28,335 bases of DNA from a virus (lineage: Duplodnaviria; Heunggongvirae; Uroviricota; Caudoviricetes). The position numbers and the translations under genes were made by a program. The notes beneath the pieces were generated by a model that did no database searches, was not told where the DNA came from, and saw nothing but the letters and a program-made list of their open reading frames with translations. The DNA is taken from IMG/VR virus record IMGVR_UViG_2737471849_000009, one strand, 5' to 3'. Positions 14,936-15,535 of the stretch are shown here, one piece after another. Positions within the stretch are counted from its first letter, which is position 1, and each line of letters opens with the position of its first letter.

Positions 14936-15268
14936 ATGTCTGAACCCTTGTCCGGTTCCGGTACGGCTGCGGCGCTCGGCGGGGCGACGGTATTCGGGCT
15001 GTTTACCGGAACGGATTTCGGGATTGTGTTTGGGGCGTTCGCTGGGGCGTTATTTGTGGCAACGATGCCGCAGGCGCTTTCAGCCTGGCGTGTGGCGGCG
15101 CATTTTCTGGTGTCGTTTATCGTTGGCGTGCTGGGTGCGCATGTGCTGTCAGCCTGGATTGCATCAAAAACAGGTTATGACGGTACATCGGCGGATGCAC
15201 TGTGTGCGGTGCTGGTGGCGGTGGTGTCGGTGAAGATTGCATACACAACAATTTATTTAAACAGATGA
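14936..15268 (+). CDS. Holin-like glycine-zipper membrane protein (three predicted TM helices)
   Basis: 110 aa from ATG 14936 with AGGAGA Shine-Dalgarno; Gly/Ala-rich TM segments (TAAALGGATVFGLFTGTDFGIVFGAFAGALFVA); located between Q and the terminase genes where lysis genes normally sit. Confidence 0.35.
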   Translation: MSEPLSGSGTAAALGGATVFGLFTGTDFGIVFGAFAGALFVATMPQALSAWRVAAHFLVSFIVGVLGAHVLSAWIASKTGYDGTSADALCAVLVAVVSVKIAYTTIYLNR

Positions 15269-15351
15269 GTGCTGATTTTATTCGGGCAACGGCCTTTGCA
15301 ATCCGCCTTGTGGCGGTCGCTGTTCTGATTTGGGCTGTGCGTTGGTGGTGA
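15265..15351 (+). CDS. Putative 28-aa TM micropeptide (MSADFIRATAFAIRLVAVAVLIWAVRWW)
   Basis: Hand-translated; ATGA overlap with the upstream stop and TGA-N1-ATG junction with the downstream lipoprotein gene. Confidence 0.2.
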   Translation: MSADFIRATAFAIRLVAVAVLIWAVRWW

Positions 15352-15352
15352 T

Positions 15353-15535
15353 ATGACGCGAAAACACTGGACACACAGAATGCCGCGAACGGCGGTGAAA
15401 TGGGCACTGGTAGCGATACTGGTGCCTTTTTTCCTGGTGGGCTGCGTCAGCCTGGATAAGGCGCGCCAGCTTTTCGATACAGCTTCTCAGGTCTGTGAAA
15501 TTGTTGATAGTGTCCGGCAGTGTATGCAGAACTGA
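15353..15535 (+). CDS. Small lipoprotein (60 aa), possibly o-spanin-like
   Basis: Signal peptide with lipobox LVGC; same length as lambda Rz1 but not proline-rich and not embedded in an Rz-like gene. Confidence 0.35.
   Translation: MTRKHWTHRMPRTAVKWALVAILVPFFLVGCVSLDKARQLFDTASQVCEIVDSVRQCMQN

Follow-up and report, generated by a model that had tools for sequence, protein, structure and literature searches.

What do three coupled small membrane genes do at the lysis position of a tailed phage when no endolysin accompanies them? The question is raised by a stretch of caudoviral DNA of 28,335 nt (IMG/VR record IMGVR_UViG_2737471849_000009, hereafter the window), in which such genes occupy positions 14936 to 15535, between the antiterminator gene Q and the packaging genes. 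A preliminary description, made from the sequence alone, had offered two readings of this arrangement, namely a decayed lysis cassette and a membrane-acting module repurposed as a toxin or exclusion function. We examined the three genes, their intact relatives and the remainder of the element to distinguish between these readings.

Three small genes between Q and the packaging genes

The antiterminator Q (Pfam Phage_antitermQ, 5.6e-52), a truncated ORF6N antirepressor and an AraC-family regulator are the 5' neighbours of the cassette, which is arranged with its control and packaging elements as follows.

13032-13061, plus strand: sigma-70 promoter resembling pR', just downstream of Q (consensus scan)
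13122-13137, plus strand: first terminator after this promoter (consensus scan)
14781-14806 and 14896-14917, plus strand: two terminator-like hairpins between the AraC-family gene and the holin start
14936-15268, plus strand: 110-aa ORF, preceded by an AGGAG Shine-Dalgarno sequence (sequence and ORF list)
15265-15351, plus strand: 28-aa ORF, whose ATG overlaps the TGA of the 110-aa ORF as ATGA
15353-15535, plus strand: 60-aa ORF, beginning 1 base after the TGA of the 28-aa ORF (TGA-T-ATG)
15578-15928, plus strand: HNH endonuclease (Pfam HNH, 2.4e-15)
16077-16559, plus strand: P27-family small terminase, TerS (Pfam Terminase_4, 2.3e-25, and RefSeq names)
16559-18316, plus strand: large terminase, TerL (TerL Pfam matches and RefSeq names)

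By these profile and name matches, HNH, TerS and TerL define a predicted P27/HK97-type packaging module. The pR'-like promoter is, by analogy with lambdoid late operons, the presumed start of a Q-antiterminated late transcript running into the lysis genes, and phiP27 and related phages have the same leader before their holin gene, with homology beginning at window positions 14809-14840.

The layout that had been noticed from the letters alone, i.e., three small same-strand ORFs between Q and the packaging genes, chained by an ATGA junction (110/28) and a TGA-N-ATG junction (28/60, where N is T), is present as described. Hydropathy analysis of the 110-aa protein reveals three strongly hydrophobic segments (approximately residues 28-42, 52-75 and 86-106), and a glycine zipper (G21-G25-G29-G33-G37) can be read directly from its sequence, in agreement with its description as a three-TM glycine-zipper protein. 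The 28-aa protein (MSADFIRATAFAIRLVAVAVLIWAVRWW) contains a single TMD, and the 60-aa protein does carry the lipobox LVGC that had been assigned to it, with Cys31 as its cysteine. Profile searches placed the 110-aa protein in a holin family (Pfam Phage_holin_8, PF16931: 6.6e-20, 71.9 bits against a gathering cut-off of 26.4; phrog_198, holin: 1.8e-34) and not in a non-holin housekeeping family, the outcome that would have spoken against the preliminary description, which had proposed this search. A literature search for 'Phage_holin_8' returned no papers. The 60-aa protein matches phrog_7528 (function unknown) over its full length at 1.4e-37. These holin and phrog_7528 matches, together with the conservation of the 28-aa sequence, argue that none of the three is a chance ORF. 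No NCBIfam family was found for any of the three or for the small genes of the parental cassette described below, and the defence and toxin models of PADLOC-DB gave no match to the three ORFs at E <= 0.1.

The absence of any ORF resembling a lysozyme, transglycosylase or amidase from the window was also confirmed. Searches with tblastn in all frames of the window, using the M15 endolysin and second holin of the parental cassette, lambda R and lambdoid lysozyme as queries, gave no match, and Pfam searches of the hypothetical ORFs, the tape measure protein and gpK detected no lysin domain. The sole related domain is the NlpC/P60 domain of the tail-tip protein gpK, which is usual for gpK, and all other segments of the window map to annotated non-lysin genes of a sister prophage. 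Of a complete holin-endolysin-spanin cassette, the window thus lacks the muralytic enzyme gene.

The 982-bp gap in the lysis cassette and its rival readings

A DNA search with 25 kb of the window identified this sister prophage, which adjoins mlrA in E. coli E21845/O/A (NZ_CP076272.1, 2,455,7xx-2,457,4xx; locus L005) and matches the window from end to end at 99.4-100% nucleotide identity, apart from three gaps. The blastn blocks around the two gaps considered in this section, and the junctions between them, are given below.

Window 8609-15238 = L005 13221-19850: 6,630 bp, 99.91% identity
Window 15237-18611 = L005 20833-24207: 3,375 bp, 100% identity
Window 18604-28335 = L005 29727-39458: 99.93% identity
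15237-15238, no strand: junction in the lysis cassette, with 2-bp microhomology (TT; junction alignment)
18604-18611, no strand: second junction, with 8-bp microhomology ATACCGGA

Exactly 982 bp (L005 19851-20832) are absent from the lysis cassette of the window, where the 30-mer GTGTCGGTGAAGATTGCATACACAACAATT spans the junction. According to the annotation of the sister prophage and our own translations, the parental order is holin1 (130 aa), holin2 (91 aa), M15 endolysin (125 aa), a 65-aa tail-anchored TM ORF, the 28-aa ORF, the 60-aa lipoprotein, HNH, TerS and TerL, and the 982 bp encode residues 102-130 of holin1, the entire holin2 (Pfam Phage_holin_3_7, 6e-22), the entire M15 endolysin (Peptidase_M15_4, 7.5e-11) and codons 1-56 of the 65-aa ORF. 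A look at intact relatives for an endolysin at this locus, which had been suggested beforehand, therefore finds the M15 gene inside precisely the segment that the window lacks. The 28-aa and 60-aa genes of the window are identical to their parental counterparts; both gene junctions are inherited, ATGA having linked the 65-aa ORF to the 28-aa ORF in the parent and TGA-T-ATG having preceded the lipoprotein gene there already.

The 110-aa ORF consists of holin1 residues 1-101 followed in frame by AYTTIYLNR*, the final 9 codons of the 65-aa ORF, so that the C-terminal 29 residues of holin1 (102-130), including its charged tail (…HQQDIASLVSGLFSRLRGGGGGNVK), are replaced by 9 foreign residues. Correspondingly, its Phage_holin_8 match covers only positions 1-101 of the 121 profile positions, and the full-length match (1-121, with the C-terminal charged tail) is seen in the 130-aa parent and in phiP27 L28. 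In lambda S, the C-terminal tail tunes timing and is non-essential. The hydrophobic end of TMD3 is kept across the fusion (…VSVKI|AYTTIYL), and the third segment is roughly preserved; selection for a working membrane protein could also yield such preservation, and an in-frame fusion arises by chance in 1 of 3 cases. The 110-aa protein had been presented as a gene in its own right. Its ORF and its holin match stand, but judging from the alignment it is not a native gene; it is a deletion-made fusion, the product of a chimeric pseudogene. This matters for annotation, as does the fact that the three-gene operon look of the locus is inherited and accidental.

We also examined the frequency of both forms. 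The intact six-gene cassette (at least 80% query coverage) is present in 131 of 5,426 complete E. coli genomes at 88-100% identity, with three of these intact-cassette genomes being 99.8-100% identical, and the same cassette occurs in NZ_OU342919.1 and UTAK-5. None of the 5,426 genomes contains the deleted form as a single piece; in DNA searches of phages and of these complete genomes, every match to the window region at 80% coverage or more is split in two by extra DNA, which is annotated as 'phage holin family protein' and 'M15 family metallopeptidase'. An exact-sequence look-up in a large assembly collection retrieved the 110-aa fusion protein from 2 contigs of two samples, one of them being contig JAKFZE010000002.1 of GCA_022568615.1, which shares 12,333 identical bp with the window and is evidently its source. 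An origin outside E. coli, considered since the complete genomes lack the deleted form, was rejected on account of this contig and of the match of the entire window to an E. coli mlrA prophage with its flank. The presence of the fusion in two samples indicates that the allele has been transmitted at least a little. The deletion is very recent, given that not a single substitution is found across the 3.4 kb that follow the junction on its right.

The second gap removes 5,519 bp (L005 24208-29726), which comprise the greater part of the portal and tail assembly chaperone genes and, between these two, the protease, capsid, connector and major tail genes. It leaves a fusion ORF of the N-terminal portal and C-terminal chaperone parts (18510-18737, 75 aa), in which the Pfam Phage_TAC_1 match is confined to residues 33-75.

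Taken together, it is very probable, on comparison of these sequences, that the missing endolysin results from a recent 982-bp deletion by illegitimate recombination in the lysis cassette of a P27-like prophage at mlrA, and nothing in the data contradicts such a deletion. Its direction is suggested by the cut-off Pfam domain and the wide spread of the long form. An insertion elsewhere, by which relatives of an ancestral short form would have gained holin2, the endolysin and the 65-aa ORF, is a formal possibility only: because the holin profile match of the short ORF breaks off at position 101 of 121, precisely where the junction lies, beyond which the ORF runs into the 3' end of another gene, and since the long form is common to phiP27, phiSTEC1575-Stx2k and the 131 E. 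coli genomes, this scenario is effectively refuted. The gap could in principle also be an assembly or consensus artefact in a strain that has the intact cassette, considering that JAKFZE010000002.1 belongs to a draft assembly and that prophage repeats can collapse in short-read assemblies. However, a junction homology of 2 bp gives an assembler no repeat that could be collapsed, the contig extends over 346 kb, the same content is reported from 2 samples, and the second deletion has an independent 8-bp junction, all of which makes an artefact very unlikely.

A further rival, which extends the other reading of the preliminary description, is one in which the three genes would be retained or repurposed as a non-lytic membrane module (a release channel, an abortive-infection switch or an exclusion function) and the endolysin would have been lost under selection. 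A homologous 130-aa holin in Stx2e prophages without an endolysin is needed for fluoroquinolone-induced toxin release (PMC12571312); in the window the fusion is in frame with all hydrophobic segments kept, and CI, Q and the late leader are intact. Nevertheless, the allele is essentially unique, with 2 contigs against 0 of 5,426 complete genomes, and the 99.9-100% identity of its flanks to the intact form leaves no time for selection. The gene coupling was inherited from the parent cassette and is not newly evolved, PADLOC provides no match, the gene upstream is an AraC-family regulator rather than a toxin, no secreted cargo lies upstream, and the same element bears a second, plainly destructive deletion. 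We regard a selected module of this kind as very unlikely. Thus, of the two readings offered at the outset, the decayed lysis cassette is borne out by the 982-bp deletion, and the repurposed toxin or exclusion module is left unsupported.

As the alignments show, loss of 982 bp between two sites sharing TT joined the frames of holin1 and the 65-aa ORF by chance, and the in-frame join created a 110-aa ORF that is seemingly coupled (ATGA) to the 28-aa gene. After SOS induction, the Q-dependent late promoter would probably be the sole source of transcripts of the remnant, and an induced cell would then produce a C-terminally clipped holin, a small TM peptide and a lipoprotein together with no muralytic enzyme. 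Lysis through the window cassette would be impossible because such an enzyme is lacking; at most, a clipped holin still able to trigger might depolarise or kill the cell. Given the 5.5-kb loss of head and tail genes as well, the prophage would build no particles and release none. We infer that the element is a defective prophage early in decay, of an ordinary known kind and with no new functional module, in keeping with the way in which prophages generally degenerate through deletions (PMC6379469). The locus may serve as a dated example of the loss of lysis in a prophage, one microhomology deletion taking the endolysin and holin2 and another the head and tail genes. There is a slender chance that the clipped holin is active as an SOS-triggered, non-lytic permeabilising or protein-release function, or that the '…RWW' micropeptide is an unrecognised component of outer-membrane disruption. 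If the clipped holin were active with the 28-aa peptide and the lipoprotein, this would represent a step towards domestication, similar to holin-dependent Stx2e release.

The micropeptide and lipoprotein genes

The 28-aa ORF is annotated as a CDS in the sister prophage and in L003. Its peptide matches phrog_4493 at 3.9e-6, the matches being confined to the C-terminal parts of two small PHROGs, and tblastn detects it in 6 phages. Five other phage or prophage cassettes keep it, with substitutions mostly at the third codon position. The family shares the core RAxAFAIRxVAxAVLxWAxRWW* in ORFs of 28, 37 or 57 aa, and a single nucleotide always separates the end of the ORF from the ATG of the gene that follows, which is Rz in lambdoid cassettes (E. 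coli 200177, GER2, PhiR5_1) and the lipoprotein in P27-type cassettes (E21845/O/A, phiSTEC1575-Stx2k). Micropeptide loci were located at the following positions.

Window: 15265-15351
L003: 3029-3115
L004: approximately 3010-3096
L007: 3791-3964
L008: 2977-3090

Substitutions at codon positions 1/2/3 number 6/1/14 in GER2 and 5/1/9 in PhiR5_1, and the amino-acid changes are conservative. Because of this third-position bias, the 28-aa ORF is considered to be truly coding and not a by-product of the deletion, and its conservation points to a real, uncharacterised lysis-cassette gene. A membrane peptide gene of 28-57 aa that is glued to spanin-position genes in two unrelated cassette types is a mildly interesting lead.

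Two other origins were considered for this region and rejected. Positions 15239-15347 (109 bp, between blocks homologous to E. coli rl0044) share 95% identity with a segment 5' of Rz in E. coli 200177 and might have been a recombinant patch from a lambdoid cassette; this was dismissed because the 99.9%-identical sister has the 65-aa and 28-aa ORFs 3' of the endolysin, so that one deletion suffices. The 28-aa ORF is also not a C-terminal remnant of holin2 or Rz, since the gene is complete, conserved and annotated on its own.

The lipobox of the 60-aa protein, with Val at +2 of Cys31 followed by Ser, suits outer-membrane sorting, and the mature product would be 30 aa long with two further Cys; an alternative start at 15380 would give a protein of 51 aa. 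At the protein level it is 91.7% identical to phiP27 20679-20858, a segment spanning a catalogued o-spanin ORF. Kongari 2018 (supplementary file 5; PMC6139136) lists for phiP27 a two-component 'separated' spanin, with the o-spanin at 20706-20861 and the i-spanin at 20348-20542. The window lipoprotein is therefore a homologue of the predicted phiP27 o-spanin, the catalogue assignment being itself bioinformatic, and it combines a suitable lipobox and sorting signal with homology to a catalogued o-spanin. An i-spanin partner was not found at the window locus, where the adjacent 28-aa protein is a bare TMD. The i-spanin listed for phiP27 is doubtful: it is a 64-aa ORF with a TTG start, antisense to a 90-aa ORF (L002 4787-4981), and no homologue of it was found in the window or in three P27-type cassettes (L001, L005 and L007). 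Because the listed i-spanin lacks homologues in other P27-type cassettes, the o-spanin label is best taken as a prediction without a conserved partner. A u-spanin of the T1 gp11 type is not indicated either, as hydropathy analysis detected no hydrophobic segment after the signal peptide of the 60-aa protein. In E. coli rl0044, the lipoprotein directly follows the endolysin, and in GER2 the lipoprotein homologue carries stop codons. Independently of the deletion, there is a slender chance that P27-type cassettes, which have no conserved i-spanin, employ the peptide and the lipoprotein in a non-canonical spanin mechanism. Such an 'o-spanin' without a conserved i-spanin is a mildly interesting side lead.

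The remainder of the prophage and known relatives

The integrase, the CI-type repressor (HTH and S24 peptidase) and Q are all intact. The prophage adjoins mlrA (yehV) and carries its integrase gene on the minus strand at 75-1361 (window 1-1361), and the insertion may alter the 5' end of mlrA because the sister annotation puts this gene directly beside the integrase. The early-left region encodes, according to the sister annotation, an SPFH (stomatin/prohibitin-like) protein (2493-3320, minus strand), which is unusual cargo. At 8394-8608, the window has 215 bp where the sister has 827 bp with a Rha-family regulator gene (L005 12394-13220). The sister's Rha-family gene in part resembles window 7747-8040 at 86%, and recombination between repeated ash/Rha segments is likely because of this resemblance.

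Downstream of Q, the ORF6N antirepressor-like ORF (13301-13789) corresponds to a C-terminally truncated pseudogene in the sister annotation, and its truncation is thus a decay lesion common to the relative with the intact cassette. The AraC-family regulator (13953-14756, probable start 14013; HTH_18/HTH_AraC, phrog_1450) occupies the moron slot between Q and the holin, which is taken by stx2e in phiP27 and by stx2k in phiSTEC1575; with terminator-like hairpins on both sides, it is a candidate host regulator encoded by the prophage. A 113-aa ORF (19098-19439), inserted between the genes for tail assembly protein T and the tape measure protein, carries a lipoprotein-type signal (…LFFISAC) and gave no Pfam or PADLOC match; it is possibly a moron or a superinfection-exclusion lipoprotein.

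Among known systems, the mlrA prophage of E21845/O/A shares with the window Q, the ORF6N pseudogene, the AraC-family gene, the holin leader, the 28-aa gene, the lipoprotein, HNH, TerS and TerL, but retains both stretches missing here, the 982 bp of the lysis cassette and the 5.5 kb with head and tail genes. The Stx2e phage phiP27 (L28 holin, L29 holin, L30 endolysin) has a holin1 with 88% DNA identity and the same order relative to HNH and the terminases. Unlike the window, phiP27 possesses holin2 and the endolysin and is without the 65-aa and 28-aa ORFs, and approximately 0.5 kb of other sequence, including the doubtful 64-aa 'i-spanin', separates its endolysin from its lipoprotein. The order of two holin genes, M15, lipoprotein and HNH is found in phiP27, E. 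coli rl0044 and phiSTEC1575-Stx2k; in phiP27 and rl0044 the first four products measure 130, 91, 125 and 60 aa, and HNH is followed by TerS and TerL. The lambdoid S-R-Rz/Rz1 cassettes of E. coli 200177, GER2 and PhiR5_1 resemble the window in having a 28-37-aa '…AFAIR.VA.AVL.WA.RWW' gene 1 nt 5' of the next lysis gene, whereas in them this next gene is Rz (i-spanin) and the holin and endolysin belong to unrelated families (class II holin, lysozyme).

A functional comparison is offered by the Stx2e prophages of porcine STEC, in which a homologous 130-aa holin was deleted and re-supplied and was found to promote Stx2e release (PLoS Pathog 2025; PMC12571312). These are also degraded P27-type prophages with the same 130-aa holin family, and the cloning primer of that study matches the first 20 nt of the window holin ORF. 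Experimental support for hole formation or killing by this family is indirect, being the Stx2e release by such a full-length homologue. Their holin is full-length and lies downstream of stx2e, whereas the window has a clipped holin, known from sequence, after an AraC-family regulator. Considering that P27-type Stx2e prophages are reported to be commonly without an endolysin and sometimes to have a partial holin (PMC12571312), holin-without-endolysin remnants of this family have already been described.
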